The notes under the pieces are model-generated. The model made no database searches and had not been told where the DNA came from. It saw nothing but the letters and a program-made list of their open reading frames with translations. From an uncultured bacterium (GTDB lineage Bacteria; CSSED10-310; CAZUFC01), in assembly GCA_964619725.1 (NCBI GenBank), contig CAZUFC010000066.1, forward strand, positions 1 to 46,856: a DNA stretch of 46,856 bases, given 5' to 3'. The position numbers were made by a program, and so were the translations under genes. The first letter of the stretch is position 1; the number at the start of each line of letters is the position of its first letter. This document shows, one piece after another, positions 7,058-45,392 of this stretch.

Positions 7058-7798
7058 GTGATGGAGGGCGAAAAGAAGATGAAAGAGATATATCGTTGTC
7101 CGAATTGCGGGCATCCAGGAAAGAGTAGACAGAGGAAGTGTGCGAAGTGCGGTTATGTTCGTGAGGGATCGGGAAATCGTTATAAGTTGGTAATGCAATC
7201 GTACAGCGTGGACAAGTCTTCGATAGTATCGGTGGTATCGGCAGCGACGAACAAGATGCCGATGGAGGTCCGGCTGAAGTTAGACCGTTTGCCTTCGGTG
7301 ATAGACGAGGGATTGACGTATGAGGAAGCGAAGGAAACGGCATATCATATATCTCAGGCAGGAGCGGAAGTAATCATCATGTCGGAGGAGGAGAGACTGG
7401 AGGTCAGCGATCATGCGGAGCTGCAGGGGATGGAGCCGGCCCGGAATGCATTGATGCGTCTTCTTCCGTTAATATTTGTAGCGATAGTGGTATTTGTGCC
7501 GTTAATAGCGGACAATTTTGAACGGATAAAGGAAGAGATAAGTCCGATACTGGAGGAGCTGGGAATTGATACAGGAGGTGAATTTGATTATGTTGAGATC
7601 GTTGTTGCGCGGGAGAATATACAGGCTGGTACAGAATTGACGCTGGATATATTGGGAAAGGCGGAAATTCCTTTTGAGAGGGCGCCGGAAGGCGGCGTGG
7701 CGCCTTTGAACGTGAGAAGCTTGTTGGGGAAGAAGGCCTTGAAGGGCATTCCCAGGGGGCTTCCAGTTCTCAGGTCCTATTTCGACGCATCAGAATAA
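7058..7798 (+). CDS. Zn-ribbon / ribosomal L7/L12 CTD-like / TM / SAF-domain protein (start may be 7061 or 7079)
   Basis: CPNC...CAKC; LPSVIDEGLTYEEAKETAYHISQAGAEV resembles the L7/L12 C-terminal domain; one TM helix; VVARENIQAGTELT...LLGKKALKGIPRGLPV resembles SAF/CpaB. Confidence 0.65.
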   Translation: MMEGEKKMKEIYRCPNCGHPGKSRQRKCAKCGYVREGSGNRYKLVMQSYSVDKSSIVSVVSAATNKMPMEVRLKLDRLPSVIDEGLTYEEAKETAYHISQAGAEVIIMSEEERLEVSDHAELQGMEPARNALMRLLPLIFVAIVVFVPLIADNFERIKEEISPILEELGIDTGGEFDYVEIVVARENIQAGTELTLDILGKAEIPFERAPEGGVAPLNVRSLLGKKALKGIPRGLPVLRSYFDASE

Positions 7799-10163
7799 AA
7801 CAGAGAGCAGCAGCGCCCGGCAAGCTGAGAGATAAGAGCATGATATATTCACCCAGCTTAAATGAGAACGGCTGATAAGAAAAAGAGAGCGACTGTTTAT
7901 TTTCTTTGAGGAAGACGCCTCGAAGCATGTGATTAACTTTAAGGAGGGGGACCTGTTTGCCGTCGAGAGCAGCAGTCCAGCCTGGGAAAAAGAGTTCTGA
8001 GAGAACGACGAGTCCGGGATTGCAATTATTGAGGTCTATTTCAATTTTATGAGGGGAGTAGGAGCGGATGGGCAGGCTTATAATTTCTTCGGAGGGTTTG
8101 TCGTTGGATTCTGGTTGCGGGTAAGAATTTTCACCGGCTTCTACGTAGGCATGAAATGAGTCGATCTGACCGATCTGTTTTAGTTTTGCCAGGGTTTCCC
8201 GGTGATTTTCTGTAAACGACCATTTTGAGCTTAAAAAGCAGCGTGGAAAGGACCTTTTATTTTCAAAGATTTTAATACCCTGTTTTTCGAATATTTTCGG
8301 AAAGTTTTCAGGATTGAATTTATCTCCGATGCGCGCCCAATCAAGGAGATTCGTATGGTTGGGTGTGATGATGTATTTGATGTTCAACCAGTGGAGCAGC
8401 GAATGGTTAAAGAGTCGGAATTTTATCAGGCGCATGGCCGGCAGAACCCGGGGCCCGGTTATGGAGGGATCGACGACGTTGAGATATTGCTCGACGGCCA
8501 GAGGCGTGAGGGCATCATTTCCCCTGAAGTCATAGAATCCGTATAATTCGTTTGTATGAGGCGGATAGGCGAACCCCAGAGGCAGCACGCGGAAAATATC
8601 CCGGTCGGAGTTGATGAACTGAGCGCTTTCCATGGGCGGGGCAATCAGGCGGGGATCGAAGGTACGATTATAATGGAAGCTATTCCAGAAAATGTCGATA
8701 ACGTTGAGCAGGAAAAGCGCCGGAACAAGGAACCTGTACCGTCGCTTTTTGATAAGCGAGGCGATTGCGATTGCGAAAACGCCCGATACGATAATCAAAA
8801 TGCTTTCCAGGCGAATATGGTAGAAATGTGACGAGAGGTTCAATTTTCTTATTATTTCCGGGGAAGGCGGGCTGAAGGGGCGAATAGAAATAATGGCGAG
8901 AAAAATCGCTGCGGGGAGTATGAGCGCCAGATGTTCGTATTTACGGGCATTTTTGAGCTGGTCCAGCCCCTTTGCAGCCAGAATGGACAGACAGAAGGCC
9001 GAAACCAGCAGAAAACGGAAGTTGTAGGACATTTTGAAGACGATAAAGCTGTGAAGTATCTGATAGAAGGGAGGAATGCCGAAGGCGACGGCCAGGCTGC
9101 AGAAAAGGAGAATGCCGAAGGCTTGTATGTCTTTATTTTTTAATTTCCTTATCAGGCAATACAAGGCGGCCGTAACAGCCCATATTCCTACGAATCCCGC
9201 CATCGTCTCATTGGAGTTGAATTCTCCGTACCAGAAATTACCCTTGGAATCATTGCCGAAAAGTTGAGGCGTTATGAACGTCATGGCCGTTTCAGGGGGG
9301 AAATAGGGCTGCACTACCACGCCTTCGGACCGGACGTCGTATGCTGAACTGTTGATAAGATATTCGGCGAAGGGAACAATCTGAACGGCGGTCGCTGCCG
9401 CGGAGATGATAAAAGCCAGGCAGAATAAGAAAGCGATCCTGGGGGTATTATTTTTTTCTGTGATGAACAGATAAATCCAGTAGATCGCCAGGGCGGTCAG
9501 GATATGCAACGCGGTTTCAATATGCCCGGAGGTGATCATCATGAAAACAGCGAAAGAAAAAAAGTAAATGAATTTTATTTTTTTTCGTTTAAGAAAAAGT
9601 CGGGAAAAAAGAAACAGAAAGGGCATCCAGGCTGCTGTTTTAAAATGAGGGTGTCCGGTCCAGACGACCATGAAGCCGCAGAAGCTGAAGGTAAGGGCGC
9701 CGAAGAGGGAACAGAGCCGGTCTGTTTTAAGGTTCCGAAGCAGCCAGAAGACTCCCAGGGCAGCGATCCAGAGATGAAGAAGCGACCTTGCAACGGTATA
9801 GGCGGAAAAGGAAAGCGAATCCAGGATGCGGTCCGGGGGGTAAAAAACCGCTGTCTGGCAGACTCCGGTAAAGGGGTAGCCGCAGAAGGAGAAGGGATTC
9901 CATAGCGGTATGATACCAGAGGCGAATGAATCTTTTGCATAGGTGCGCCAGGGCAGGAATTCGAGGATTTCATCAAAGAGAATCCAGTTGCTGGGTTTGT
10001 CGATTCCGGAGGGTTTTATGTTTTTCCAGGGGGAGTAGAAGTAAAAGAGGTCTGCGGGAAAGAGCGCTTCGCCTTTTATTACGCCTGGATAGAGAGCAAT
10101 GAAGAAGGCTGAAACTGCGAAGAGGGCGAGCAGCGATGAGAGGATGAATTTGTATAATTTCAT
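7770..10163 (-). CDS. YfhO-family polytopic GT-C membrane protein
   Basis: PLWNPFSFCGYPF, FYP, many TM helices, and the C-terminal VLSELFFPGWTAALDG...VNHMLRGV typical of YfhO. Confidence 0.85.
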   Translation of the reverse strand: MKLYKFILSSLLALFAVSAFFIALYPGVIKGEALFPADLFYFYSPWKNIKPSGIDKPSNWILFDEILEFLPWRTYAKDSFASGIIPLWNPFSFCGYPFTGVCQTAVFYPPDRILDSLSFSAYTVARSLLHLWIAALGVFWLLRNLKTDRLCSLFGALTFSFCGFMVVWTGHPHFKTAAWMPFLFLFSRLFLKRKKIKFIYFFSFAVFMMITSGHIETALHILTALAIYWIYLFITEKNNTPRIAFLFCLAFIISAAATAVQIVPFAEYLINSSAYDVRSEGVVVQPYFPPETAMTFITPQLFGNDSKGNFWYGEFNSNETMAGFVGIWAVTAALYCLIRKLKNKDIQAFGILLFCSLAVAFGIPPFYQILHSFIVFKMSYNFRFLLVSAFCLSILAAKGLDQLKNARKYEHLALILPAAIFLAIISIRPFSPPSPEIIRKLNLSSHFYHIRLESILIIVSGVFAIAIASLIKKRRYRFLVPALFLLNVIDIFWNSFHYNRTFDPRLIAPPMESAQFINSDRDIFRVLPLGFAYPPHTNELYGFYDFRGNDALTPLAVEQYLNVVDPSITGPRVLPAMRLIKFRLFNHSLLHWLNIKYIITPNHTNLLDWARIGDKFNPENFPKIFEKQGIKIFENKRSFPRCFLSSKWSFTENHRETLAKLKQIGQIDSFHAYVEAGENSYPQPESNDKPSEEIISLPIRSYSPHKIEIDLNNCNPGLVVLSELFFPGWTAALDGKQVPLLKVNHMLRGVFLKENKQSLSFSYQPFSFKLGEYIMLLSLSLPGAAALCFILMRRNRT

Positions 10164-10194: not shown

Positions 10195-11742
10195 TCATGG
10201 TTTATTTTTGAGCCAGACCTGGTAATTTTCCGAGCGCCATTGAATGGAGAATCCGTTATTTTTCAGAAATTCTTCAGACACCGGCAATTCATAATTCGGA
10301 ATAACGGCGCTGATCTTCCCCAGTTTAATATTTTCGATTATATCATTCAGCCAGTATCGGCTGGAATTTCTTCTCAATGCGGCAAAGGACATTTTTGCAG
10401 CCGATTTTTTAAATTTAATGAATTCATTTTTTTGCAGGGATTCTTTGAGCATGCGCATCAATCCGAGATTATCCTTGAAATTAACGGTTTTGATGCGTTG
10501 AGCTTCGAGGGCGATAAATGGAGCAGAGATTATAAGCTGTTGAGGTGGGGTATTATCATAAATAAAGTCGGCTGTGCGTTTGACTTCTGATCTGGCCAGT
10601 CCGTTGAAGCCGCATTTTTCAGCCGTTTTTGTTTTTTTGGGAAAAAAATGGAATGTTGCGGCGCATAAGAGGAGCATGGCGAAGAAACAGGCAAGAGGCA
10701 GTGCGGATTTTTTAATCGGCATTTTTAACGAATTTTTCAGCGAATGGAAAGTTTCTGCAGATAGAACAGCGGTTCCGAGTGCAGCGGGAATGATCGCCGG
10801 TATGAGGTAATGAGGCCAGATAGTGGAGCTTAGTATGACAGAGAAGAATATTTCGGCGGCGAGCCAGAGAATGAGGAGGAGGGCGTATTTTTTTAAATTT
10901 GAAAAGGAGAGGATGAGCAGTCCGAGAGCGCCGGAGAACAGGGGGCATCCGAGTGCCTGAAAGAGCCAGCCGATTCTGATATTAATGGGGGCATTGGCTC
11001 CTTTAATGAAGTGAAAAATAAAAGTTTGGTTAATGGTTTCGATTCCGTAGATCAGAGTAAATATGGCATAAATCAAGGCTATTCCGAGGCATGAGAAAAG
11101 GGCGGTTTTCAAGGCATGAGAGAAGCTGCGGTCCAGCATCAGAAAGATCATCCAGGCTGTCAGGGGAACGACCATGGTTTGTTTGCCGGCGAAGCCGAGA
11201 GTAAAAATGACAGGAAGAAGGAGGAAGTCGACAGAATTTTTTCTGTTTTGATCGGCGACAAGGCAGAAAGCAGCAGCAGCAGCGGCGGCAGTGAGTATTT
11301 CGCGATCGAAGACGTGGTAGCGGAAGATCAGGGGGTGCAGTGAGTAAAGTAAGGGAGCGGTCCAGACAAAGAGGAATTGGTGAGTTTTGGAAGAGCGAAC
11401 GTGATGCATTTTGTAGAGTTTATTCATACCGAGGAAGAGGCAGGAGGCGGTGAATACGGCGGTTAGAGCAGTGAAAATTTCCGCGATCCGGTAGGATACG
11501 CCGAATATTTCGTATAAACCGGCCAGGATAAATTCAAACAGGGGTAAATTAGGTGATGCGAAATCGTGAAATGGGCTCAGGCCGCTTTTAATGAGAAATG
11601 CCGCGTAAATATAGTTGGGGTCTTCTATCCATACGAGCGGGTAGAGGATTCTCAAAATTCTGGGCGCTGCGAGGAGCAGGATTAAGACTAATAAGGCAAT
11701 GGGGTTTAAGGTATCGGATTTGTTTTTGAAGGTCATGCGCAT
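10195..11742 (-). CDS. ArnT/PMT-like GT-C glycosyltransferase
   Basis: First TM followed by an acidic pair (WIEDPNY), PFHDF..PNLP, KQT and WPHYLIP; polytopic. Confidence 0.7.
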   Translation of the reverse strand: MRMTFKNKSDTLNPIALLVLILLLAAPRILRILYPLVWIEDPNYIYAAFLIKSGLSPFHDFASPNLPLFEFILAGLYEIFGVSYRIAEIFTALTAVFTASCLFLGMNKLYKMHHVRSSKTHQFLFVWTAPLLYSLHPLIFRYHVFDREILTAAAAAAAFCLVADQNRKNSVDFLLLPVIFTLGFAGKQTMVVPLTAWMIFLMLDRSFSHALKTALFSCLGIALIYAIFTLIYGIETINQTFIFHFIKGANAPINIRIGWLFQALGCPLFSGALGLLILSFSNLKKYALLLILWLAAEIFFSVILSSTIWPHYLIPAIIPAALGTAVLSAETFHSLKNSLKMPIKKSALPLACFFAMLLLCAATFHFFPKKTKTAEKCGFNGLARSEVKRTADFIYDNTPPQQLIISAPFIALEAQRIKTVNFKDNLGLMRMLKESLQKNEFIKFKKSAAKMSFAALRRNSSRYWLNDIIENIKLGKISAVIPNYELPVSEEFLKNNGFSIQWRSENYQVWLKNKP

Positions 11743-12551
11743 CAGGAGCCGTCATCGGGTTTGTTTTTTCTTGCGGTGATAAACAGGGCGCCTCCTTGAT
11801 CGCAATGAGTGATGACATATTTCTGGATACGGGGGCCCCAGATTTTCCAGACGGGGATTCTGGGTAATATGACCCAACGACTGAAGAGTTTTTTGTTAAA
11901 ATAGGCTGGAGCGCTGAGGAACAGAAGTTTATCGAATAGTTCCAGAGATTTTTGGGGAAGATAATAATCGTATTGGATGGATTTGAAACCGGCTTCCGTC
12001 AGCAACCGGCTCCATTTTTCGGGAGAGAAGCAATTATAGTGCCTGAAAAGGGCTGTGATCGCTTTGGTGTAAGCTTCAGCGAGGAAGTTAAGTTTTAGGG
12101 ATTTAAACAGTTTTGGAAAAAAGAGATAGTCGTTATAAAGGTCGCTGTGTGCGGTAAAAGCATAGATGCCGTTCGGCGAGAGGACGCGGCATATTTCTTT
12201 GAAAGCGGCGAGCGGGTTTTTCACATGTTCGAAGACGCAATTGCTCACGATGGTGTTGAAGTAGCCGTCCGGATAGGGGATATTATTGGCGTTGGAAGTG
12301 ACCAGCTTTTTATAGTTGCCTCTTCGAGCGGCCCTTCTGATTTCTCTTCCCGACAGGTCGAGACCCACATCTATTTTCTGATCCGTCAGTATCGAGAGGA
12401 ACAAACCTTCGCCGCATCCGATATCCAGGACGGGCGGAACAAGTTTGACTGCAGAAAAAAGAGAAGCTTCTGAGCCTCGAACGATGGACAGAGCCAGAGG
12501 CGCGACCATGATATATTTTTTAAAGAAGTTTTGGCTTTCTGTTGATTGCAT
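11742..12551 (-). CDS. Class I SAM-dependent methyltransferase
   Basis: VLDIGCGEG, NCVFEHV, RVLSPNG; one-base overlap with the downstream GT-C start. Confidence 0.9.
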   Translation of the reverse strand: MQSTESQNFFKKYIMVAPLALSIVRGSEASLFSAVKLVPPVLDIGCGEGLFLSILTDQKIDVGLDLSGREIRRAARRGNYKKLVTSNANNIPYPDGYFNTIVSNCVFEHVKNPLAAFKEICRVLSPNGIYAFTAHSDLYNDYLFFPKLFKSLKLNFLAEAYTKAITALFRHYNCFSPEKWSRLLTEAGFKSIQYDYYLPQKSLELFDKLLFLSAPAYFNKKLFSRWVILPRIPVWKIWGPRIQKYVITHCDQGGALFITARKNKPDDGS

Positions 12552-12582: not shown

Positions 12583-13305
12583 CTATGGCTTGAATGCCAG
12601 TCTTATGATGGTCGTTGCCGTATGAATTATTTCATCCATTGAAATTTTGGAAAGTCCGTGAGAACGCGCCGTGTAGGTTATGGGGACTTCGCTTACATTA
12701 AATTTCCGTTGTTCGCAACGATAAAGAAATTCCACCAGGAAAGAATAGCCGATCGACTGTATGGAATCGAACGGAATAGTTTCCAATACCCTGCGCCGAT
12801 AGACCCGGAAACCGGCCGTGCAATCACTGGGCGACAATTTCAGAAGACTTTTGGCGAAAAGATTAGCCGTTCGGCTTATCAAACGACGGTTCCAGGCAAA
12901 TTTTTTCGTTTCCCCTCCGGGAATGTACCGGGAACCGATAACGATGTCGGCGTCCCTCGCGGCCTCAAGAATCGACGGAATAAAACGGGGATGATGAGAA
13001 AAATCGGCATCCATCGTAAGAAAAAGTTTTACATATTCATCCTCAAGCGCTTTTCTGAAACCCGCCAGATAAGCAGTACCTAATCCCATTTTCTTCTCTC
13101 GCCGCAACAACTCTACTCCGGAATCGGAACCCTTTTCTCTTCTGACGATCTCTGATGTGCCGTCAGGACTGTTGTCGTCCACCACGATTATAACGCTGGG
13201 TATTCCCAGATTCTGAATTTCCTCAATGAGTCTTATAATATTTTCCGATTCATTGTAAGTCGGAAGAATTACGGCTGTTTTTTCGATTGACTGATTGCTC
13301 AACAC
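12583..13305 (-). CDS. Polyprenol-phosphate-mannose synthase-like GT2 (DPM1/Ppm1 type)
   Basis: ILPTYNESENI, VVDDNSPDGT, KMGLGTAY, MDADFSHHP, GSRYIPGG, DCTAGFR, GYSF, SKI. Confidence 0.9.
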   Translation of the reverse strand: MLSNQSIEKTAVILPTYNESENIIRLIEEIQNLGIPSVIIVVDDNSPDGTSEIVRREKGSDSGVELLRREKKMGLGTAYLAGFRKALEDEYVKLFLTMDADFSHHPRFIPSILEAARDADIVIGSRYIPGGETKKFAWNRRLISRTANLFAKSLLKLSPSDCTAGFRVYRRRVLETIPFDSIQSIGYSFLVEFLYRCEQRKFNVSEVPITYTARSHGLSKISMDEIIHTATTIIRLAFKP

Positions 13306-13325: not shown

Positions 13326-15074
13326 TTATGGATGATCGTTTTTCGCAATATCCGGTTTTTCAAGTCTTTCAATCATTTTTTGTCGGTATGTCTCAGAATT
13401 TCTATATTTTTGAATAATTTCCAGCTCCGGCCGCTCATACTCGGGACATTGGAATGTAACTCTGCGCAAGCGATATTTTTCACGAATCGATTTGTCCTTT
13501 TTCAACCATTCTCTTCGGTCAAAAATTTCCTTATTTTTTATAGCATACAACAACCCTTCATTGACAATAAAAAAATTTTGAACGAGTTCTGCAGAAAGCG
13601 CGGTAAGAAAAACAGGGTTCTGATTCAAAAGTCTGAGTTTCTTGAGCGCTTGGACCAGCAAAGCGTCTTCGGGGTTAATGCGGTCACGCCGGCGAGGAAG
13701 TATAGACCAGGAATTCGGCATTTTCAGCCAGGGATATAACCGTGCGATATCCGCACGAACCCAATGCTCATCCGGCGTCAAAAGGCTTTGATGATGGATC
13801 GCAGCAACGTCATTTCTGTATTTTTCCACTCGCAGCATATACTCAAGAGGAAAATTTTCATCCTGTTCAACGACGACGACAGCCCTGGACCGCGGCGTAC
13901 TAAGGATGTTGAATGTCCAGTCTCTCAACAGGTAGTTTCGGCTTAAATCGTTCCAGGCATAAGATTGAACGGTCAGACAACCTGCTACGACGGAGAGCAG
14001 AACAAGAGCGCCTGTTCGGGTTTTTTTTTCCAGGACTCTCCAGAACATGCCTCCCCAGATTGACCAGATAATCAGTCCGGGAAGGAAGAAAACCTCCGTA
14101 AAAAAATACCATTCTTCAGGTATGTTGAACAGGACGATGCCGATAAGGCTTGAGAGCGCCCAGAGGAGGAAGCAGAAAATCGTCCATTTATTTTTAGTAA
14201 TAACCATCAGAACGAATCCGACCACGGCCCATAACCAGTGTCCCGACGGCAGATTTTCGCGGATCACGGTACCAAAATTATCAAGTGAATGAAGGAAAGC
14301 ATCAAAGGACCTGACGAATCTTTGCTTATGAAATGTTTTCGTGGTAATGAGCCCATGCCAGGAATCGAAATCATCAGGCCTTTCCCAGGAGTATTCAGCG
14401 CCGGCATGAGCTCTCAGGGGGAGGTACAACTGGCTGGAATAACCGAGAAGGACAAAGAGCGCGCCGGCGGTGACGATTTTTATGTCCCATATTTTTTTTC
14501 TGTAATGAGCGACAAGCAGATAGAGAACGGCGGGGAAAGTGAAGACGATCATCTGGTGCACGCCCACTGCTAGGCCTGCCAGAAAAGCGGAGAAAAGCAA
14601 TCGTTTTAGAGATTCTTTTTCGGCTCCGATCAGCAGGTTCCATAAGAATATCAGGATAAGAGAGACGGCAAGCGCATATACCTCTGCAGAAGTGCATTGT
14701 CCCCAGAAAGTATTTCCGAAGCCCCACAGCATTGCTGCAGCAGCAGGGCCGAATATTCCTCCGAAAATGAAACGCGCCAATCCGAAAAGCAGGGCAGCGC
14801 TCAAGGCTCCTGCGAATGCGGAAAACAGGTTTATTCGGAAGGGGAGGTCGCCAAGAGGGGGAAAATTAAAGCTGCCGGCCGTCATTGTATAAACCGGGTA
14901 ACCCGGAGAATGGGGATTCCCGAGCAGAGCGACTGCAGTGATGAATTCAGAGCTGTCGATCAAGGTAATATCGGGGGCTGCGGTTTTCAGATACAAGGCG
15001 AAAAAAAGGAGGAAAATCAGGCAGTACGGCAGTAAGGGATGATTGAAGCGGCGTTTGTTTGATGAAGGTTTCAT
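13326..15074 (-). CDS. DUF2723 / TMEM260-like GT-C protein, paralogue 1
   Basis: DSSEF...LGNPHSPGYP, RINLFSA, WGQCTSAEVY, YLPLRA, DLSRN. Confidence 0.85.
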   Translation of the reverse strand: MKPSSNKRRFNHPLLPYCLIFLLFFALYLKTAAPDITLIDSSEFITAVALLGNPHSPGYPVYTMTAGSFNFPPLGDLPFRINLFSAFAGALSAALLFGLARFIFGGIFGPAAAAMLWGFGNTFWGQCTSAEVYALAVSLILIFLWNLLIGAEKESLKRLLFSAFLAGLAVGVHQMIVFTFPAVLYLLVAHYRKKIWDIKIVTAGALFVLLGYSSQLYLPLRAHAGAEYSWERPDDFDSWHGLITTKTFHKQRFVRSFDAFLHSLDNFGTVIRENLPSGHWLWAVVGFVLMVITKNKWTIFCFLLWALSSLIGIVLFNIPEEWYFFTEVFFLPGLIIWSIWGGMFWRVLEKKTRTGALVLLSVVAGCLTVQSYAWNDLSRNYLLRDWTFNILSTPRSRAVVVVEQDENFPLEYMLRVEKYRNDVAAIHHQSLLTPDEHWVRADIARLYPWLKMPNSWSILPRRRDRINPEDALLVQALKKLRLLNQNPVFLTALSAELVQNFFIVNEGLLYAIKNKEIFDRREWLKKDKSIREKYRLRRVTFQCPEYERPELEIIQKYRNSETYRQKMIERLEKPDIAKNDHP

Positions 15075-16246
15075 TAATTCACGACATTTTTTTCGATTTC
15101 AGCGATGATGCGTTCCGTCACGACATCCCAGGAGAATTCTTTTCGTATCAGATCAATGGAGGAATTCGAGCGCGGGGTTTCCAGAGCTTTAATCAGATTG
15201 TCGCTGAACTGATTTTCATTTTGGGATAAATAAACGTAGTTCTGTTGTCCGAAGCGGTCTTCAACGCTTTTTAAATTGAAGCATACGACGGGTATGCCCA
15301 TGGCGAGGTATTCGAGAAATTTCAGAGTATAGACCATATTAAGATTGAAATTAGGTTTGTAAGGGACCATTCCGACGCGGGCTATGCTCAGGTAATCCGC
15401 TATTTTTTCATAAGGGAGGAAATTGAGAAAAATGACCCGTTTATCCCTTATTTTTTCCTGCAACTGTCTGTAACCTTCGCCCTCGGCAATGACCAGGAAT
15501 CGCACATCTTTTTTATCGAGCGTTTTTCTGATGATGGAAGGCAAGACATTAAGGCCGTGATACGGATCGATAATACCGTGATAAACGATGACCTCTTCGC
15601 TTTCCAGGCCCAGCTCCTTTCGACGCATTTCCTTTTCATGAGGCGAATATTTGTCTGGATTGAAAAGAACCGTATCCACACCGTCGCCTGCTGTAAAGAC
15701 CTTTTGCGGATCGTGAAAAGTTCCATTGATTACAGCATTTTTCATACGTTCAGTCACGACGAAGAGTTTGTCTGCGGACCGGGCGACTTTTTTTTCAAGT
15801 TTTACAAGATAATCGACCAGCTTTTGCGGATATCTTTCATCTTCATAGAGAAAACCGGATATGAAATCGGTCATGCTGATTATGAGGGGAATTTTGCTGC
15901 GTCTGAGCGCTAAAGCGAGTCCTAGGCCCAAAGTGCAATTCCGCAGAAATAAGCAGTCGAAATTCTCCCGCTTCAACATTCTTCGAATCTTGAGAGTGAA
16001 AAGGAGTATGAAAGCGGCGTATCTCAGTTCTCGGCGGCTTGCCGTTCTATGAATATAAAAGGGAGAGCATGGTTCGATTCGTATACCCAGTCGTTTTTCG
16101 ACCGGTTCTTTGTCGATGTAGAGAGGCGTCACAGCCGTCACGTCGTGCCCGCAATGAACCATTTTCTGTAATATTCTCAGATTGCCGGCTGTTCCCCCTC
16201 CGAGAAGAGGCATAAGTTGTTCATTGGAGCAAAACAGTATTTTCAT
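15074..16246 (-). CDS. Glycosyltransferase family 4
   Basis: MKIL..., GHDVTAVT, DGVD, LKFLEYLAMGIPVV, FSWD; one-base overlap with the next start. Confidence 0.9.
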   Translation of the reverse strand: MKILFCSNEQLMPLLGGGTAGNLRILQKMVHCGHDVTAVTPLYIDKEPVEKRLGIRIEPCSPFYIHRTASRRELRYAAFILLFTLKIRRMLKRENFDCLFLRNCTLGLGLALALRRSKIPLIISMTDFISGFLYEDERYPQKLVDYLVKLEKKVARSADKLFVVTERMKNAVINGTFHDPQKVFTAGDGVDTVLFNPDKYSPHEKEMRRKELGLESEEVIVYHGIIDPYHGLNVLPSIIRKTLDKKDVRFLVIAEGEGYRQLQEKIRDKRVIFLNFLPYEKIADYLSIARVGMVPYKPNFNLNMVYTLKFLEYLAMGIPVVCFNLKSVEDRFGQQNYVYLSQNENQFSDNLIKALETPRSNSSIDLIRKEFSWDVVTERIIAEIEKNVVN

Positions 16247-16262: not shown

Positions 16263-16913
16263 TCAGGAATTTTGAGTCTGCAAATCTGATGAGTCGAGTA
16301 TGACGGCGCTCGCGGACTTCATTGCTTTGAGCGCAGCGTCGACGCTTCCATCCGGTTGATTCACCCCGCGGCATGCATCGAGAATCAGGAATACGTCAAA
16401 TTCGAATTCAAGTCCATCCAGGACAGTGGCTTTTACACAAACGTCCGTCGCCAATCCGCAGATGAAGATTCGCTTGACGTTCAGGCTTTGCAGGTATCCG
16501 CGCAACCCCGTTTCCGTTTTCTTGTCGTTATCCCTGAATCCTGAATATGTGTCCACCTCTCTTTTCATGCCCTTGCGGAATATCGTCTTGACCGGAATCA
16601 TGTCAAGCTCCGGGAAAAACTCTGCGCCCTGAGTTCCCCTGACGCAATGGTCCGGCCACAGTATCTGATCCATACCGTTCAACTCTATTGTTTGAAAAGG
16701 TATTTTAGATTGATGCATGGATGCGAAGGATATGTGATTATCGGGGTGCCAATCCTGTGTCGCCGCGCAGATCGAAAACATACTGCTGATCCTGTTTATT
16801 ACCGGCACAATTTCATCTCCCTCCGGGACTTCAAGTGCGCCGCCCGGACAGAAATCGTTCTGAACGTCCACGATGATGAAGGCATCTTTTGGTTTAATGA
16901 GCTCTTTTTGCAT
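16263..16913 (-). CDS. pncA: Nicotinamidase/pyrazinamidase
   Basis: VDVQNDFCPGGAL, TQDWHP, LWPDHCV, RKG, GLATDVCV. Start moved to the ATG at 16913, which follows AAGGAG. Confidence 0.92.
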   Translation of the reverse strand: MQKELIKPKDAFIIVDVQNDFCPGGALEVPEGDEIVPVINRISSMFSICAATQDWHPDNHISFASMHQSKIPFQTIELNGMDQILWPDHCVRGTQGAEFFPELDMIPVKTIFRKGMKREVDTYSGFRDNDKKTETGLRGYLQSLNVKRIFICGLATDVCVKATVLDGLEFEFDVFLILDACRGVNQPDGSVDAALKAMKSASAVILDSSDLQTQNS

Positions 16914-17000
16914 CAAAAACTCCTTTTTGATCATTTTAACGGGAATGGTATTATTTCTGCTTCTGTCATTCCCTGGCAGCACTCGCATTCATATCACATT

Positions 17001-17806: not shown

Positions 17807-18058
17807 GGCCTGCTGACGCTCTGCGATAACTACTTTGCCGGCTGGAAATGCTTTATCGACGGACGGGAAGTTCCTGTCTTGCGAGCAAATTACACTTTTA
17901 AAGGAGTCCTTGTGAATAAAGGCGAACATATTGTAGAATTTAAATTTGAACCTATGTCCTTCCGTGTGGGCTTGTATGGGGCTCTGCTCGCTTTGGGACT
18001 CTTTTGTATGATCATGTCCATCGCAGTCAGGGCAAAAACGCAGGGGATGAAAGGATGA
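17807..18058 (+). pseudogene. C-terminal fragment of a YfhO-family gene
   Basis: My translation GLLTLCDNYFAGWKCFIDGREVPVLRANYTFKGVLVNKGEHIVEFKFEPMSFRVGLYGALLALGLFCMIMSIAVRAKTQGMKG* aligns with the C-terminus of 7770-10163. No start codon. Confidence 0.85.
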
Positions 18059-20632: not shown

Positions 20633-22612
20633 TTAACGAATTATGGTTGTTTGAAGTTCTTTTTCTGAGGCGAGGAAGGTTGTTTCTCCGTATGTAAGGG
20701 CTAATTTCATCAAGGGAGAGCGGAAGTCTGCCAGCAGAGTCATTTTAATATTTTTATCCTGATCGTTGATGACGATGGATAACCGGGAAGCGACGGGTAT
20801 TCGACCGAGTTTTTCCATAAGGGGTCTGTGTCTGTCGGAGATGAAGAATCGTCGTTTTCCGAAAACCGAATGGCGTTGAAATAATTCCTGCCGTTCGACG
20901 GAAGAGATATGTATTTTATCCGCTTCTGGGATGAGGTGTGGAGGTTTTTTAACGGAGAAATCGGGATTGAGGACGACAAAGCCGTTTTTGATGCTGTTTT
21001 TAATTTGATGGAGTTTCAGATAAACGTTTTGATTTTGCGATGAGGTGAAAAAGCCTTCCAGGTGAACTTCAGGTGTTTCGTAACGGTAGATTTTCCAAAG
21101 AGGCATATGGGGATCGGGAATCTCTTCGAAGGGTTTCAGATCAGAAAACAAGGGTATGGGGGAGAGTGTGCGGACCAGGTAGAATGCTTGAGCGGCAACG
21201 GGCGCTTGACCTTCATAGTATCCCCGGGGCAATGACAGGACAGGTTCGATTTTCATCTGAGGGAGAAGAAACGTGCATTGTGGAAAGCCTCCTTCAAAAA
21301 CATAAGGCACAAAAAGAACGCTGTTTTTCCGGCTTGATTTCCTGATCGTCTCGCACGCTTTTCTGATGCCCCTCCGCCAGCGACCGACATCTCCATTTTT
21401 AACGGCAGGATAAAGCTGGAAAAGCGAATAGGCGGTGTGATCGATAACCAGGAGGAATCCGATGATTAACAGGGCGGTTTTCGCCGGTCTTTTTGCGGTT
21501 CGCAAAGGTTTAAGAGCGAAAAGCCGGGCTGGCAGCAGCATGGAGACAGGAAAGATTATATCCAGATAATGAGGGATGGAAGGAAGGATGAATCCCAGTA
21601 TTTGAGGTTCTGTGCGATGTTTGCTGATAAGCGGAATAATAACTGCCGAGGGTAGAATCCATCCTAATATCATTCTGTCTGTTTTGTTTTTTTCAAAGAC
21701 CGCTTTTTTAAAGCTGATGAGAAAGGATACCGCTGCCAGAGGGAGGAGGAGAAGAAGGGGGCGACCGGGAGGACGTACGTCGAGCCACGGCATTTTACCG
21801 GTCCAGGCGGCAAAAGTCGTGTAAAGGTAACCCAGGATGCGAGCCGGGACCGAAACTAGGAGATTGGAGTCTTTGGTCACGGAATGCGCTTCTCGGCCGA
21901 GGAAAATTTTGACGCTGGGGAATCCATGGATAGTGTTGTAGACTAGGACAGGCGAAAAACTGAGGATAATTCCTCCTGTGAAAAAAAGAGAGATGGAAGC
22001 GCGTTTACCGGAATCCGGCCGGTTGATGAAAAGCGCGTATAAAAAGACAGGAAAAAGAACCATAACGTAGAAATGTCCATGCATGGAAAGACCCAGAAAA
22101 ATTCCTGCGGCAACGGATCGCAGGATATATCTCTTTTTCGTTGCGACTGCCGCCAGGAAACCGGCTGAAAGAGTGAATGGGACGAGATTGCAGGCGTATA
22201 TGATCCGGGATGCGCATAATCCCCAAGGAAAGAAAGCTCCGGTCCATATGACGAATGGAGCGGTTGCTGCGCCGAAGAGCCTGGCGGAAAGGAGAGATAC
22301 GCAGATTAACGCCCCTAAACCGGCCGTCGCCATGATATATCGAATAGATTCGACCGATTCTCCGAAAATTCTGAAAAAAACTGCGGAGATATATTCCAGG
22401 AAAGGGCCTTCATAGACTTTGTCGCCGGTTAAAGGAAAAGTTTCGCCTGCAGCGATCATCTGCGCACCGAGCGCTATCAGCGATTCATCATGTTCGAAGC
22501 CGCACAATTTTCCGATCTGATAATAGCGGGGCCAGGCGGCGAAAAGAATTCCCGCAATCCATATAGCGATGATCAATTTTTTGTTTTTATCGGCGTTTGT
22601 GATGTGACTCAT
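20633..22612 (-). CDS. ArnT/PMT-like GT-C glycosyltransferase
   Basis: TM1 followed by FEHDES (DE motif), YEGPFLEYI, many TM helices and a soluble C-terminal domain. Confidence 0.75.
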   Translation of the reverse strand: MSHITNADKNKKLIIAIWIAGILFAAWPRYYQIGKLCGFEHDESLIALGAQMIAAGETFPLTGDKVYEGPFLEYISAVFFRIFGESVESIRYIMATAGLGALICVSLLSARLFGAATAPFVIWTGAFFPWGLCASRIIYACNLVPFTLSAGFLAAVATKKRYILRSVAAGIFLGLSMHGHFYVMVLFPVFLYALFINRPDSGKRASISLFFTGGIILSFSPVLVYNTIHGFPSVKIFLGREAHSVTKDSNLLVSVPARILGYLYTTFAAWTGKMPWLDVRPPGRPLLLLLPLAAVSFLISFKKAVFEKNKTDRMILGWILPSAVIIPLISKHRTEPQILGFILPSIPHYLDIIFPVSMLLPARLFALKPLRTAKRPAKTALLIIGFLLVIDHTAYSLFQLYPAVKNGDVGRWRRGIRKACETIRKSSRKNSVLFVPYVFEGGFPQCTFLLPQMKIEPVLSLPRGYYEGQAPVAAQAFYLVRTLSPIPLFSDLKPFEEIPDPHMPLWKIYRYETPEVHLEGFFTSSQNQNVYLKLHQIKNSIKNGFVVLNPDFSVKKPPHLIPEADKIHISSVERQELFQRHSVFGKRRFFISDRHRPLMEKLGRIPVASRLSIVINDQDKNIKMTLLADFRSPLMKLALTYGETTFLASEKELQTTIIR

Positions 22613-24431: not shown

Positions 24432-24550
24432 GAATAACGGTTTGTCTTATGAACGATGAAGCATCAGGAATTATTGTTTTTGCTGCTGTTTCATGAGAAA
24501 AGGGAGCAGCAGGAAGCTCCCGTCTTTATCCACGGGAATGGTGGAGAGGA

Positions 24551-29492: not shown

Positions 29493-29523
29493 AATACAAA
29501 TTTTGCCCCTTTTGTCGATAATG

Positions 29524-30066: not shown

Positions 30067-30079
30067 TACTAAATTCCTT

Positions 30080-42370: not shown

Positions 42371-43261
42371 TTAGCTCAGCCGGGCGCGGGGATTTTCGAG
42401 TCGGCTGATGATTTTGAGCAGCAATTTAGCGGCTGTGAATTCAGAAATTCTATTGTCTGGCAGGGGCTTAAGTTCCATGATGTCAAAGCCTGCTATTTTT
42501 TTATGAGCGATCAAGCCGTCCAGAAGGAAAAGCATCTCCTGCCAGGAGAAGCCTCCGGGTTCCGGCGTTCCGACTCCAGGAATAACGGAAGGGTCGAAAA
42601 CGTCCAGGTCAATGGAGATGTATACAGTTTCTCTAAGACGATTTAGAAGCTCGTTTCTGATTGAGTGAATATTTTTTTTGTTTTCCGAGGTAGCGGGCAA
42701 CAAGCGGATGCGTTTTGAATTTTCAGCAAAAGCCCATTCTTCGGCGCTTATGCTTCTGATGCCGACGCAAACGGTGGGACATAATTCGCTGATTCTTCTG
42801 GCGGTGCAGGCGTGGCTGAAGGGAGAGCCCTGGTATTGGTTTCTCAGATCGGCATGAGCATCGAAGATAACTGTATCGATTTCCGGGAATTTATTAATAT
42901 AGGCCTGCATGCATGCGATGGAAATCGAATGCTCTCCGCCCAGGGTAATTACCAGTTTATCCAGGTTTAAGTAACGGGAAACGGTTTTCCGTATTATTTT
43001 TAATTGTGTCTCAACGCCTGACTTATCTATCGGCGACGGCGGCAATGTGTAAAACAGACCGTCGGGCGTTTCCCATTTCATTTCCAGATCGAACGTTTCT
43101 ACTTGCGCAGAAGCGGTCAGTAAGCCTGCAGGACCTGCGGAAGCGCCCGTTTCGTAAGAAACCGTTCCCTCATAACCCACCGGATATATGACGTACCGGC
43201 ATTTTTCAAGCGTCTTTTCATTTTCATCAAAACCTAAAAAGGGTACTTTTATTCCATTCAT
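42371..43261 (-). CDS. speB: Agmatinase
   Basis: GGEHSIS, FDAHADLR, SHAC, VGIRS, SIDLDVFDP, GTPEPGG. ATG at 43261 follows GGAG. Confidence 0.88.
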   Translation of the reverse strand: MNGIKVPFLGFDENEKTLEKCRYVIYPVGYEGTVSYETGASAGPAGLLTASAQVETFDLEMKWETPDGLFYTLPPSPIDKSGVETQLKIIRKTVSRYLNLDKLVITLGGEHSISIACMQAYINKFPEIDTVIFDAHADLRNQYQGSPFSHACTARRISELCPTVCVGIRSISAEEWAFAENSKRIRLLPATSENKKNIHSIRNELLNRLRETVYISIDLDVFDPSVIPGVGTPEPGGFSWQEMLFLLDGLIAHKKIAGFDIMELKPLPDNRISEFTAAKLLLKIISRLENPRARLS

Positions 43262-43262
43262 T

Positions 43263-45392
43263 TTAGCTCCCGTTGTCACGATTGTTCTTAGTTTCAGAGG
43301 AGAATTCCTGCAATTTTTTCATCGCATCGTATTTAGCGGGTTCCCAAGCGGGAGCAGAATCTGCGATTTCTTCCAGCAGGCGTTTTGCTTTTTTGCGATT
43401 ATTGAATACGACATCGAGGAGTTCCGCCCATTCGTAACGAAATGTCCATTCTTCCGGGTGATGTTTTATTAAAATTTGATACTGTTCCGCGAGTTCATGA
43501 TATTTTCTTGTGCGCTTGAAGAGTTGAATAAGATTCAAATGGGAGCGTTTGAGTTCTGGAGCTTCTTGGACAGCCTTTTCAAATGCCTTTTTTGCCGGAT
43601 TCAGCATATTATTTTTCGCATAGAGTATTCCGAGTTCGTTAAGCTTCATTGCTCTCGCTCTGGGACTCATATCGGAGGCTTCAGTTTCTTTTTGCAACTT
43701 TTCGATTTGCCGGTTCAGGTTTATGATTTCGGAATGAGATTTCGTAGCTTGCAAGTAATAGTCTAGAATACGGCCCATCAAATAATCATCTCTTAACAGG
43801 GGATTATATATTCCCCGGAAAACGTAATGGCCCCAATTGTCCCATATTTTGAATCGTTCCGTTCCTCTAATGATCCGAAACAATACGCCGTAAGGTTGAA
43901 TGGTATATCCCGGCAAACCTTCCGGAGAACGGTATTCCGAAAAATAAACGTCGTTTCGGGAACGCCTGATTAATTGATATTCAAGCCTGTTGCGCTTTGA
44001 ACCCTTTTCGGGTACTCCCGCGAAAATCAATGATTGAGGCAATATGTCTCCTCCGCGGTGAACGAGTTCAATATCGGGACGTCTGCGTTCGACATATTGA
44101 AGGTAAAGAGTCGTGAATATCTGATTGTCGCGGAGAGTCATCAATATGCCGTTGTGGGACACTGTTTTCAACAAGTTGCTCCCGTAATCGAATGCGATGA
44201 AGTTGCGGCTTTTGTCCTGATGGGCGTAAGAATCGGTCACTTTATATATGAAATAAAATAACAGAACAAAAGCAAGCAGAAGAGGCCCGGTTTTTTTCTG
44301 AAATTTTTTTCGTAATAAATTCAACAGAAAATAAAATGAAATGCTGGAAGAAATGACGACCCCTGTGTAAAACAGCATGAAGTACCTTCTGGTCAGATAT
44401 AGATCATAATAGGAGCCGTGAGAGAATAAAAGAAGAATATTACCGAGGCAGAGAACGCAGACGATATAAAGGAGTTGAACATTCATTCTAATTGAAATAA
44501 TGACTCCTGCAAAAGCCGCCGATCCCAGCAGTATTCCGCTCGCCGTACCCCCGAATTCCTCGCTCAAACTCATCGTCAATCTGCCGACTGCTTTAAAAAG
44601 GTCCTGTCTAGTGCGGATTTCCGATCTACTCCAGAAAGCTTTTCTGGACATTGCATCGACGAAACCCTCCACTGTTTCAGTGTTTTCCCAATCTACCGCC
44701 GGATTTTGCGCTGAGCGAACGGGCATATAAATAAAAATACTGAAACCCAGGATAAAAGATATCGCCGACAGACTCATTCCGACGAAAAAGCGTTTTTTAA
44801 TTGTTTGAAAAGCGAACGGCGCCCATATCAGCATTCCCAAAAGACTTATTAAATGGATTCCGGCCGCGATACCGGAAAGCAAGGATGCCGTCATGACTAG
44901 TCGAAACGATCTCGTTCGTCCGATTCTGAAAGAGAGAAAGACGAACAAAACTATGAAGAATATGTTCAAAGAGTAGACTCGGGAGACTCCGGACTGATAC
45001 CAGAGCGACGATGATAATCCAAGGATGAATGAGACGCTCAGAGCTGGAAGAATTCCGACACAGGAGTAAAGGGTTGCGAAAAGGACCGCCGGCGTTAAGG
45101 CGCTGAAAATAACGGATAGTATGTTTGTGCGAGAGGCGACATTGCCGAATGGAAGAAGCAGTTGGGCGCATTTGGCGATCATGACGTACGATGGATAACC
45201 CGTGGGATGCGGAATTCCTGTCAGATAAGCCGCAGTGATCATATCACCGTCGTCGCCTACGAAAATCGTCGGACAGGATGTCTGTAAATATAATTGAAAA
45301 AAAAATAAAAAAACCAATATGGCCAATAGACTGACAGATTCGCTTCTTCTCATGGAACGTCTCTTTCCAATGCACGGCAATGACGATTTCAC
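43263..45392 (-). CDS. DUF2723 / TMEM260-like GT-C protein, paralogue 4, with C-terminal TPRs (start may be 45353)
   Basis: PTIFVGDDGDM...GIPHPTGYP, RTNILS, RVYSLN, YMPVRS, DKSRN, NELGILYA...AKKAFEKAV. Confidence 0.85.
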   Translation of the reverse strand: MKSSLPCIGKRRSMRRSESVSLLAILVFLFFFQLYLQTSCPTIFVGDDGDMITAAYLTGIPHPTGYPSYVMIAKCAQLLLPFGNVASRTNILSVIFSALTPAVLFATLYSCVGILPALSVSFILGLSSSLWYQSGVSRVYSLNIFFIVLFVFLSFRIGRTRSFRLVMTASLLSGIAAGIHLISLLGMLIWAPFAFQTIKKRFFVGMSLSAISFILGFSIFIYMPVRSAQNPAVDWENTETVEGFVDAMSRKAFWSRSEIRTRQDLFKAVGRLTMSLSEEFGGTASGILLGSAAFAGVIISIRMNVQLLYIVCVLCLGNILLLFSHGSYYDLYLTRRYFMLFYTGVVISSSISFYFLLNLLRKKFQKKTGPLLLAFVLLFYFIYKVTDSYAHQDKSRNFIAFDYGSNLLKTVSHNGILMTLRDNQIFTTLYLQYVERRRPDIELVHRGGDILPQSLIFAGVPEKGSKRNRLEYQLIRRSRNDVYFSEYRSPEGLPGYTIQPYGVLFRIIRGTERFKIWDNWGHYVFRGIYNPLLRDDYLMGRILDYYLQATKSHSEIINLNRQIEKLQKETEASDMSPRARAMKLNELGILYAKNNMLNPAKKAFEKAVQEAPELKRSHLNLIQLFKRTRKYHELAEQYQILIKHHPEEWTFRYEWAELLDVVFNNRKKAKRLLEEIADSAPAWEPAKYDAMKKLQEFSSETKNNRDNGS

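Follow-up and report, generated by a model that had tools for sequence, protein, structure and literature searches.

What do bacterial relatives of the human protein O-mannosyltransferase TMEM260 glycosylate when several of them are encoded close together, and do they act as one system? The question is raised by a contig of 46,856 nucleotides from an uncultured bacterium (GTDB lineage CSSED10-310), analyzed here at its full length and referred to as the window, which encodes seven membrane glycosyltransferases of the GT-C type and two glycosyltransferases of family 2 (GT2). Four of the GT-C enzymes, numbered paralogues 1 to 4 by position, fall in the Pfam family PF11028 (TMEM260-like, earlier named DUF2723). 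A first-pass annotation, made from the letters alone, had read all of these genes as one extracytoplasmic protein O-glycosylation pathway. The genes form instead three separate minus-strand operons, designated A, B and C. Operon B is the orthologue of an operon of the same phylum in which a pilin gene stands between two DUF2723 genes, and it differs from that operon in lacking the pilin gene. The explanation preferred here, with moderate confidence, is that the three operons are independent modules for periplasmic glycosylation from polyprenyl-phosphate sugars and that the acceptors of operon B are likely to be pilin and/or proline- and threonine-rich linkers.

The window corresponds to the complete contig C66 of a metagenome-assembled genome of 9.17 Mb (G000; 344 contigs, 90.9% complete, 6.5% contaminated). 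Thirty-two open reading frames (ORFs) of the window were scanned with Pfam, for which the cut-offs are 24.2 bits for PF11028 and 26.1 bits for PF13231 (PMT_2). Comparisons were made with the 13 nearest genomes in the collection, all of the same phylum and of another family. The collection holds no closer genome, and the GyrB protein of G000 is at most 63% identical to any other protein in the protein collection.

Operon B runs from 27788 to 20633 and encodes a GT2, two DUF2723 proteins and a PMT_2 protein, listed here in the direction of transcription:

26580..27788, minus strand: GtrB/ArnC-type GT2 of 402 residues (GT2L), first gene of operon B (PF00535, 112.7 bits)
24551..26587, minus strand: DUF2723 paralogue 3, member of subfamily Db (PF11028, 74.4 bits)
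24432..24550: gap of 119 bases at the position of the relatives' pilin gene, with no pilin match
22587..24431, minus strand: DUF2723 paralogue 2, member of subfamily Dc (PF11028, 69.9 bits)
20633..22612, minus strand: PMT_2-type GT-C, last gene of operon B (PF13231, 34.5 bits)

The intergenic distances are -26, 119 and -8 bases from the 20633 side, the last being the overlap of the GT2L gene with the start of paralogue 3. Such overlaps between GT2 and GT-C genes, together with the short gaps, indicate co-transcription. All four reading frames are intact and keep their subfamily-specific motifs. Within the 119-base gap the minus strand shows a hairpin resembling a terminator (24521-24502) and a site resembling a promoter (24499-24470), both of which are weak consensus matches only. 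Enzymes of the GtrB/DPM1/ArnC group make polyprenyl-phosphate sugars, and by analogy GT2L and its counterpart in operon A (GT2S) would make undecaprenyl-phosphate sugars. GT2L contains a DGD motif (of the DxD type) and two C-terminal hydrophobic segments. Its best NCBIfam match is ArnC (198.7 bits against a cut-off of 529), and it also matches PgfS (159.7 bits against a cut-off of 500), both below cut-off.

Directly upstream of operon B and on the same strand, 162 bases from the GT2L gene, lies a stretch (27951-30664) that encodes an extracytoplasmic function (ECF) sigma factor, a probable anti-sigma protein that has no family match and an HtrA-type protease with a PDZ domain. A regulatory tie of operon B to envelope stress through these neighbours is possible.

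The identity of operon B emerges from the phylum relatives. PF11028 is present in 11 of the 13, mostly in 4-7 copies that are often in tandem, and seven tandem arrays were scanned with Pfam. In six genomes (G003, G005, G006, G008, G009 and G010) the scan confirmed one order on one strand: a GT2 of ~335 residues, Db, a prepilin-type pilin of ~160 residues, Dc and PMT_2, with the pilin gene 59-198 bases upstream of Dc. Two further genomes (G012 and G001) have their best-scoring pilin copy between two PF11028 matches by coordinates, which brings the total to 8 of 13, and this position of the pilin between two DUF2723 genes is kept across three families of the phylum. The pilin-DUF2723 pair of G001 adjoins pilB, pilT, pilC, pilS and pilR. 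Three genomes (G003, G005 and G006) carry extra genes at the front of the operon, encoding DegT, WbqC, an epimerase/dehydratase, a 247-residue GT2 and a third DUF2723 protein of a subfamily designated Da. As for the remaining relatives, G002 has no PF11028 match, G004 has one, and G011, which is 60% complete, has none. G007 has two, and no pilin was found there with the query used, while in G013 (69% complete) PF11028 and the pilin are on separate short contigs. A gene for an AglB/STT3-like oligosaccharyltransferase was also observed 1 kb from the G001 pair, on contig C144 (locus L018, 12457-14799, minus strand).

Each protein of operon B was matched by BLASTP to its counterparts in the relatives' operons:

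GT2L against the GT2 of all six relatives' operons: 56-57% identity, 351-377 bits
Paralogue 3 against Db of the six relatives: 28-33% identity, 198-233 bits
Paralogue 2 against Dc: 24-30% identity, 119-162 bits
PMT_2 (20633-22612) against PMT_2 of the six relatives: 25-28% identity, 155-202 bits

In a maximum-likelihood tree of 30 DUF2723 proteins, which came from a quick search and contains some long branches, paralogue 3 falls in the Db clade (SH-aLRT 99), paralogue 2 groups with seven relatives' Dc proteins (100), and Da forms a clade of its own (100). On these comparisons operon B is assigned as the orthologue of the phylum's pilin-containing operon, minus the pilin gene. A single-protein scan of the metagenome contig collection with paralogue 3 gave no relatives.

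The relatives' operon has a second conserved neighbour. In all five arrays for which the contig extends far enough to include the flank (G003, G005, G006, G009 and G010), a gene for a secreted PT-repeat protein lies directly upstream on the same strand, and it either overlaps the next gene or is separated from it by no more than 83 bases; in G008 and G012 the contig stops before this flank. The encoded proteins are 500-1047 residues long and have a signal-peptide-like start and 200-550 residues of PTxTPT repeats, with 65-80% Pro+Thr+Ser. This family (loci L012-L016, for example L015:4916-6991) has an N-terminal domain and conserved C-terminal domains ending in FGCN[LR], as well as a weak MAM-like signal that is below cut-off. 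Homologues of its C-terminal domain are found on at least nine contigs of G000.

The other two operons have different contents. Operon A runs from 16988 to 7770, with intergenic distances of 31, -1, 31, 20, -1 and 16 bases from the 7770 side, and a gene remnant lies beyond its 16988 end on the opposite strand:

7770..10163, minus strand: YfhO-family GT-C membrane glycosyltransferase, last gene of operon A (PF09586, 65.6 bits; ~13 hydrophobic segments)
10195..11742, minus strand: borderline PMT_2-like GT-C (PF13231, 22.0 bits in the window scan and 26.1 in the genome scan; ~8 hydrophobic segments)
11742..12551, minus strand: S-adenosylmethionine-dependent methyltransferase (Methyltransf_11 and Methyltransf_23, ~72 bits)
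12583..13305, minus strand: soluble GT2 of 240 residues (GT2S), candidate polyprenyl-phosphate sugar synthase (PF00535, 113 bits)
13326..15074, minus strand: DUF2723/TMEM260-like GT-C, paralogue 1 (PF11028, 80.1 bits)
15074..16246, minus strand: GT4-type (GT-B) glycosyltransferase (Glyco_trans_1_4 and Glyco_trans_4_4, ~54 bits)
16263..16988, minus strand: nicotinamidase, first gene of the strand run (NF008623, 221 bits, over the cut-off of 174)
17879..18058, plus strand: remnant of a YfhO C-terminus, an ORF of 59 residues that aligns to residues 741-781 of the window's YfhO

Operon A thus encodes members of three GT-C families alongside a methyltransferase and glycosyltransferases of the GT2 and GT4 types, and no conserved counterpart of it was found in the relatives. 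The nicotinamidase is probably a passenger. GT2S contains a DAD motif and no hydrophobic segment, and its gene lies 20 bases downstream of paralogue 1. Its best NCBIfam models are PpgS (78 bits), AglJ and dolichyl-phosphate hexose transferase, all under their cut-offs. The best NCBIfam model of the methyltransferase is the DVU_1556 family (69.7 bits), which is also below cut-off (155). As part of the preferred explanation as a whole, and with the same moderate confidence, operon A would be a lineage-specific module of the same chemistry as operon B. The YfhO remnant, which is 32% identical to the window's YfhO over 41 residues (E 3e-8 in a single comparison), sits between operon A and the gene that comes next, in DNA with no annotation. 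Beside it, between operon A and a histidine kinase gene, an ORF on the plus strand (17350-17589) resembles a transposase fragment by eye.

Operon C runs from 45392 to 41865 and encodes paralogue 4, an agmatinase and DksA, with distances of 128 and -17 bases from the 41865 side:

43263..45392, minus strand: DUF2723 paralogue 4, which opens operon C and has a TPR-like region at its C-terminus (PF11028, 62.8 bits)
42371..43279, minus strand: agmatinase (TIGR01230, 206.6 bits, over the cut-off of 174.3), sharing 17 bases with the end of the paralogue 4 gene

The TPR-like region of paralogue 4 is indicated by two weak matches, to TPR_1 in Pfam at E 0.0047 and, over residues 560-662, to TPR designs at E 0.006. 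An ORF of 140 residues upstream of paralogue 4 (45397-45819, minus strand) was considered as a further gene and rejected. It has no family match and overlaps an opposite-strand ORF (45539-46165) that resembles a Ham1/RdgB-type NTP pyrophosphatase by eye, and it is probably not a gene. At the left of the region a membrane protein of 765 residues with a spermidine-synthase domain is encoded on the minus strand (4303-6600), a second polyamine gene besides the agmatinase gene. The left end of the window is occupied by a reverse-transcriptase ORF that runs off the contig (2-1312, plus strand; RVT_1, 121 bits), possibly of the group II intron type.

The gene inventory of the first-pass annotation has largely held. 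The four DUF2723 genes, all with intact frames and PF11028 scores of 62.8-80.1 bits, are where it had placed them, as are the two GT2 genes and YfhO (by Pfam) and the YfhO remnant (by pairwise alignment). The two ArnT/PMT-like GT-Cs that it had named fared unequally, since the gene at 20633-22612 is a PMT_2 member and that at 10195-11742 is only borderline. Its observation that Wzx, Wzy and nucleotide-sugar genes are missing agrees with the Pfam scan, in which no Wzx, Wzy, nucleotidyltransferase or sugar epimerase/dehydratase family matched among the 32 ORFs. The lipid-phosphate sugar donor that it had suggested has gained ground, as two operons pair TMEM260-family GT-Cs with GtrB/DPM1-type GT2s, which makes such a donor and extracytoplasmic transfer the natural reading.

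The relation to TMEM260, for which that annotation had proposed a profile search, extends beyond the PF11028 scores. Human TMEM260 (9rql_A) is the sole solved-structure match at E<=0.01 for each of the four proteins, with E-values of 2.5e-15 for paralogue 1, 1.3e-19 for paralogue 2, 3e-17 for paralogue 3 and 1.1e-30 for paralogue 4 (over residues 14-445). The alignments of paralogues 2, 3 and 4 run across the core and the second domain, and that of paralogue 1 covers the N-terminal part and a weak second stretch. By these matches all four are classed as true TMEM260-family GT-Cs, with paralogue 4 the copy predicted to be most like the human enzyme and the sole one in the window with a TPR-like end. 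NCBIfam gave no match for any of the four. In the homology search with paralogue 2, 16 proteins among 8000 candidates were found at E<=1e-10, the best non-self matches being 22-35% identical, and the only informative name among them was 'DUF2723 domain-containing protein'. Of the 15 non-self homologues, 13 are annotated with PF11028 and also with PF28495, a more recent Pfam family that may correspond to the extracytoplasmic domain.

Structure prediction covered paralogue 2. In its AlphaFold2 model, built on 30 sequences (pLDDT 85.6, pTM 0.90), a helical transmembrane (TM) core extends to about residue 400, residues 408-540 form an alpha/beta domain, and the C-terminus is a single helical hairpin. 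A Foldseek search of the PDB with this model returned 27 matches at E<=0.001, and the top ones are GT-C enzymes with TM-scores near 0.5: STT3/PglB, ArnT, ALG9, AftA, DPY19 and Pmt4. The fold library, with entries released to 8 April 2026, evidently does not contain the TMEM260 entry 9RQL, hence no TMEM260 match.

The available text of the TMEM260 structural study, a cryo-EM preprint, describes a GT-C core of 11 helices, a Rossmann-like domain on the luminal side and a TPR domain to which an extended peptide with spaced prolines binds. It reports that D52, H67, R264 and Y267 are essential for donor binding, with D52 positioning the donor, and that the acceptor Thr is activated by D441 of the Rossmann-like domain, acting as the base (10.64898/2026.03.17.711096). 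The corresponding residues of the window's proteins were mapped with HMMER alignments and a 30-sequence MAFFT alignment (Y267 and R355 from MAFFT, the reading of D441 from HMMER); the alignments are at 20-30% identity, so the assignments at R355 and D441 are tentative:

Paralogue 4: D at D52, H at H67, R at R264, F at Y267, R at R355, D at D441
Paralogue 1: D at D52, H at H67, T at R264 (Lys next), F at Y267, V at R355, D at D441
Paralogue 3: D at D52, H at H67, R at R264, S at Y267 (Tyr one position on), A at R355, N (HMMER) or R (MAFFT) at D441, no Asp
Paralogue 2: E at D52, H at H67, A at R264, E at Y267, Y at R355, D (HMMER, RSD motif) or S (MAFFT) at D441

The two subfamilies of operon B are consistent in these positions across the window and the relatives. 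All eight Dc proteins have Glu at D52 and Ala/Glu at R264/Y267, with the RSD motif in seven and YSN in that of G001. All seven Db proteins keep D52, H67 and R264 and have no Asp at D441.

The family membership, fold, orthology and synteny described above are observed, and donor, topology, acceptors and order of action are inferred from them. Most likely, the GT2 enzymes of operons A and B would transfer a single sugar from its nucleotide-activated form to undecaprenyl phosphate on the inner side of the membrane. A putative flippase would then turn the lipid-sugar over, and the DUF2723, PMT_2 and YfhO enzymes would move the sugar to periplasmic acceptors. The job of operon B is likely to be O-glycosylation of pilin and/or proline/threonine-rich linkers, because in the relatives the pilin gene sits between Db and Dc and the PT-repeat gene lies directly upstream. 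Dc would likely be the initiating enzyme on Ser/Thr, since it keeps the acceptor-activating Asp of TMEM260 and its gene sits just after the pilin gene, like tfpW/tfpO after pilA. Db and PMT_2 would likely be the extending enzymes, in the case of Db because it has no acceptor-activating Asp. In the window, where both acceptor genes have been lost, operon B would act in trans on four pilin paralogues and/or more than 140 PT-linker proteins of the genome; alternatively, it may have been re-used for another acceptor.

Several observations weigh against this explanation. The window contig yielded no pilin, whether as a PF07963 match or as a tblastn match to the relatives' pilin, and there is no PT-repeat gene next to operon B. 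Neither paralogue 1 nor paralogue 4 has an orthologue in the 13 relatives, where the best matches of paralogue 1 (26-30% identical) are no better than its in-genome paralogues, and neither of the two has a conserved context. Single-protein scans of the genome and metagenome contig collections with paralogue 1 gave no close relative either. Beyond the phylum, none of 20 DUF2723 loci, taken as the best PF11028 matches, contained a pilin; five had a GT2 within 7 kb, and two had a PTS-rich ORF. No flippase family matched among the window's 32 scanned ORFs, and GtrA (PF04138) has a single match in the whole genome, on contig C10; SMR and MATE were not searched genome-wide. The top fold matches of paralogue 2 include both protein-modifying (STT3/PglB) and lipid-modifying (ArnT) enzymes and so do not settle the acceptor.

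The donor synthase also has a wider distribution than operon B. A scan of the collections with GT2L returned 80 loci, one of them a known relative and the other 79 mostly from Acidobacteriota at ~50% identity, and a DUF2723 gene was absent beside these 79 save for one weak 26-bit match. The pattern indicates that GT2L is a widespread donor synthase and is not specific to operon B-type systems, and the idea that it is the dedicated partner of DUF2723 enzymes everywhere was dropped on this evidence.

Finally, the genome may possess another route to glycosylated pilin. G000 encodes four full-length pilin paralogues elsewhere (contigs C4, C6, C35 and C96), 52-72% identical to the relatives' pilins. 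The one with the highest tblastn score (68% identical), on contig C96 (locus L105, C96:14000-30000, 2789-8371), follows genes for a WecG-type glycosyltransferase and a GT2 and is flanked by two genes of the Wzy_C (O-antigen ligase) family, one with a TPR, so that a second pilin glycosylation route may exist. The pilin gene on contig C6 lies 3.6 kb from a PMT_2-TPR gene and that on contig C4 ~5 kb from a DUF2723-TPR gene.

The alternative that survives best is that the acceptors are not proteins and that the modules decorate lipid A, the lipopolysaccharide (LPS) core or O-chain, or an exopolysaccharide, the pilin and PT-repeat neighbours being incidental. It is judged rather improbable overall, and for operon B it is a serious rival. 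It draws on the ArnC model as the best NCBIfam match of GT2L, although that score is far under the cut-off and ArnA, ArnB and ArnD have no counterparts among the window ORFs. The PMT_2 family includes ArnT, which is also among the best fold matches. The DegT, WbqC and epimerase/dehydratase genes in three relatives' operons are of the amino-sugar pathway type and, like the ArnC-like and PMT_2/ArnT-like genes, would fit modification of a lipid or glycan. GT4 and methyltransferase genes such as those of operon A are common in glycan loci, and the three-component systems treated in the available text of PMC11127046 mostly modify glycans. Against this stands the finding that the sole characterized PF11028 member, as presented in the available text of its structural study, acts on protein (10.64898/2026.03.17.711096). 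The Asp by which TMEM260 activates the hydroxyl of the peptide is retained, on the tentative alignments, in paralogues 1, 2 and 4, and the pilin stays between two DUF2723 genes across the three families of the phylum.

The proposal of the first-pass annotation, which assigns the seven GT-Cs and the two GT2s to a single pathway of extracytoplasmic protein O-glycosylation with Thr/Pro-rich substrates, is less probable again and is regarded as unlikely. Its exemplary substrate lies at the right end of the window:

46313..46855, minus strand: 3' portion of a gene for a PT-repeat protein, cut off by the contig end and encoding a C-terminal sorting-signal-like tail (from the translation; no family match)

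The tail (window 46316-46441, minus strand) consists of T-P-x-P-P-[IV]-P, five residues, Gly, ~17 hydrophobic residues and Arg/Lys. It recurs at 95 places in the genome by tblastn (E<=0.01), and a profile of it gives at least 140 matches in G000, with 150 of 375 candidates scored (for example C110:18764-18874 and C211:8566-8673). The tail-bearing proteins of G000 are mostly giant, and the phylum relatives have 1-24 tails per genome. NCBIfam models gave no match to the tail even at E 10, and PEP-CTERM and other named sorting signals were set aside accordingly. The sole exosortase-family gene (C134:13003-13455) lies 3 kb from a tail-bearing ORF (C134:16468-16578). In all, 172 ORFs of at least 100 residues contain a 60-residue stretch with at least 60% Pro+Thr; they total 756 kb, ~8% of the genome, and some exceed 6000 residues. 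Its sequence places 46313-46855 in a very numerous group of PT-linker proteins that have the C-terminal tail in common.

The abundance of such proteins speaks for the single pathway, as does the PT-repeat gene directly upstream of the orthologous operon in five of five readable relatives. Among the 14 phylum genomes the number of tails increases with the number of PF11028 matches (Spearman rho 0.72, or 0.65 without G000), a correlation across kin genomes with a profile built from G000 and with exceptions in G001 (4 tails, 7 PF11028) and G011 (11 tails, no PF11028). A precedent for a GtrB enzyme working with YfhO-type GT-Cs is described in the available text on streptococci (PMC12041528). The single pathway does not withstand the finding that the genes lie in three operons with separate histories, in which paralogues 2 and 3 have orthologues in the phylum and paralogues 1 and 4 have none. 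The substrate at 46313-46855 was tied to paralogue 4 by distance alone, and this proximity is at chance level: a PT-rich ORF is found within 5 kb of 3 of the genome's 14 DUF2723 genes, where random placement would give 3.2. With so many PT-rich genes in the genome, closeness to a DUF2723 gene means little, and the chance-level figure also counts against the preferred explanation. In the relatives the pilin is the more tightly embedded neighbour (8 of 13). Thus, the notion of Thr/Pro-rich acceptors is retained for the orthologues of operon B and given up for the ORF at 46313-46855 itself. IPT/TIG domains, the acceptors expected by analogy with TMEM260, were set aside as well; only four TIG/IPT matches occur in the whole genome, and the acceptor domain therefore probably differs from that of the human enzyme.

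It is quite improbable that operon B is a relic, drifting or re-used after loss of its acceptor genes, with the GT-C clustering reflecting a GT-C-packed genome: the missing pilin and PT-protein genes, the mere 119 bases between the two DUF2723 genes, the 95 PMT_2 matches and 14 DUF2723 genes of the genome and the YfhO remnant beside operon A would suit a relic, but the four frames are intact with their motifs kept, GT2L is still 56-57% identical to its orthologues, and the density of GT-C genes in the window, seven in 46.9 kb, clearly exceeds the average of ~1 per 90 kb for the genome.

The genome as a whole sets the scale for the preferred explanation of three independent modules. PF11028 has 15 matches in G000, of which 14 are DUF2723 genes and one is assigned by Pfam to PMT_2 only; PMT_2 has 95 matches, 81 of them above cut-off. 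Four of the 14 DUF2723 genes are on this one 46.9-kb contig, far above an even spread over 9.17 Mb, a clustering that is qualified by two of the four being the conserved tandem pair. The surroundings of the 11 other PF11028 places were scanned with Pfam (129 ORFs). Seven of the 10 other DUF2723 genes encode C-terminal TPRs, several are in tandem with PMT_2-TPR or Wzy_C-TPR genes, and GT2 genes adjoin only one, on contig C24. The window is thus a dense spot in a GT-C-packed genome and not a unique island. On contig C17 a Dpy19-like gene (C-mannosyltransferase family) with a TPR (locus L009, 17232-19643, minus strand) was observed ~13 kb from the DUF2723 copy. About 100 GT-Cs and 8% of the DNA in genes for PT-linker proteins point to an unusually glycosylated cell surface. 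A bolder and tentative extension, possible rather than probable, is that in this small uncultured phylum three specialized TMEM260-type subfamilies, supplied by GtrB-type lipid-sugar synthases, would build O-glycans stepwise in the periplasm, on type IV pilins and on the PTxTPT linkers of giant proteins that are secreted and anchored by their tails. G000 would have scaled this up to ~100 GT-Cs and more than 140 PT-linker proteins with a new C-terminal sorting signal, forming a mucin-like coat, and the bacterial enzymes would be the evolutionary source of animal TMEM260.

TMEM260 was recognized as a human protein O-mannosyltransferase only in 2023, and its loss causes a severe heart and kidney syndrome. 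It is an endoplasmic reticulum (ER) enzyme that O-mannosylates IPT domains (PDB 9RQL, 9RQM and 9RQN) and belongs to the same Pfam family as the four paralogues. The model of paralogue 2 shares its arrangement of a GT-C transmembrane core followed by an alpha/beta domain, and paralogue 4 keeps D52, H67, R264 and, tentatively, R355 and D441, together with a weakly TPR-like C-terminus. The window enzymes differ from TMEM260 in being bacterial and not of the ER, and their donor would be an undecaprenyl- and not a dolichyl-phosphate sugar. Moreover, paralogue 2 has Glu for D52, is without R264 and Y267 and ends in one helical hairpin in place of a five-helix TPR, and paralogue 3 lacks the Asp of D441. 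The available text of the TMEM260 discovery paper mentions only 'distant homologs in bacteria' (PMC10214176), and no published function for a bacterial DUF2723/TMEM260 member was found in the literature searched.

The streptococcal GtrB/PgtC2 and Pgf systems (PgfS, PgfM1 and PgfM2) combine, according to the available text, a GT2 synthase of undecaprenyl-phosphate sugar with YfhO-type GT-Cs and glycosylate extracytoplasmic, disordered Ser/Thr-rich regions (PMC12041528). They resemble the window in the YfhO gene of operon A (65.6 bits) and in the match of GT2L to the PgfS model (159.7 bits), which does not reach that model's cut-off of 500. They differ in belonging to Gram-positive bacteria and in using YfhO enzymes only, with no DUF2723, and in the window the YfhO gene (operon A) and GT2L (operon B) are in separate operons. 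The three-component systems (GtrA/GtrB/Gtr*, ArnC/ArnE-F/ArnT and GT136) pair a lipid-phosphate sugar synthase with a GT-C that acts outside the cytoplasm, as set out in the available text of PMC11127046. Their likeness to operons A and B lies in the adjoining GT2 synthase and GT-C genes. However, no flippase gene matched in the window, and those systems modify glycans or lipid A. The ArnC/ArnT pathway for lipid A aminoarabinose is further set apart by the lack of an ArnT model match and of ArnA-, ArnB- or ArnD-type genes among the window ORFs.

The closest parallel for the pilin is TfpW of Pseudomonas aeruginosa. The available text on this pilin D-arabinofuranosyl transferase describes a GT-C with 11 TM helices and a periplasmic TPR that uses a polyprenyl-phosphate sugar and is encoded directly downstream of the major pilin gene pilA (bioRxiv 10.1101/2020.04.19.049825). 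The relatives' Dc gene likewise lies 59-198 bases downstream of a pilin gene, a comparison of layout and gene position and not of sequence. The relatives' operon differs from the TfpW, TfpO and PglL systems in holding two DUF2723 genes, a PMT_2 and a GtrB-type GT2, and the window's own operon B differs from TfpW and TfpO in having no adjacent pilin. The first-pass annotation had offered the system as undescribed. In principle it is not, for the chemistry and logic are already known from the three-component systems, from TfpW and from streptococcal GtrB/PgtC2 and Pgf, as the available texts on the last two describe (bioRxiv 10.1101/2020.04.19.049825; PMC12041528). What appears to be new is the use of bacterial TMEM260-family enzymes, their three specialized subfamilies and the conserved operon with a pilin and a PT-repeat protein. 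The evidence for this is genomic, and the window holds a degenerate, acceptor-less form of the operon. In the relatives, an operon in which two genes for TMEM260-type enzymes flank a pilin gene, next to genes for a PT-repeat protein and a lipid-sugar synthase, offers concrete candidate pairs of enzyme and substrate, and subfamilies with or without the acceptor-activating Asp amount to a natural experiment on the TMEM260 mechanism. In addition to the TfpO/PglL and TfpW types, the relatives' operon points to a possible third type of pilin glycosylation.

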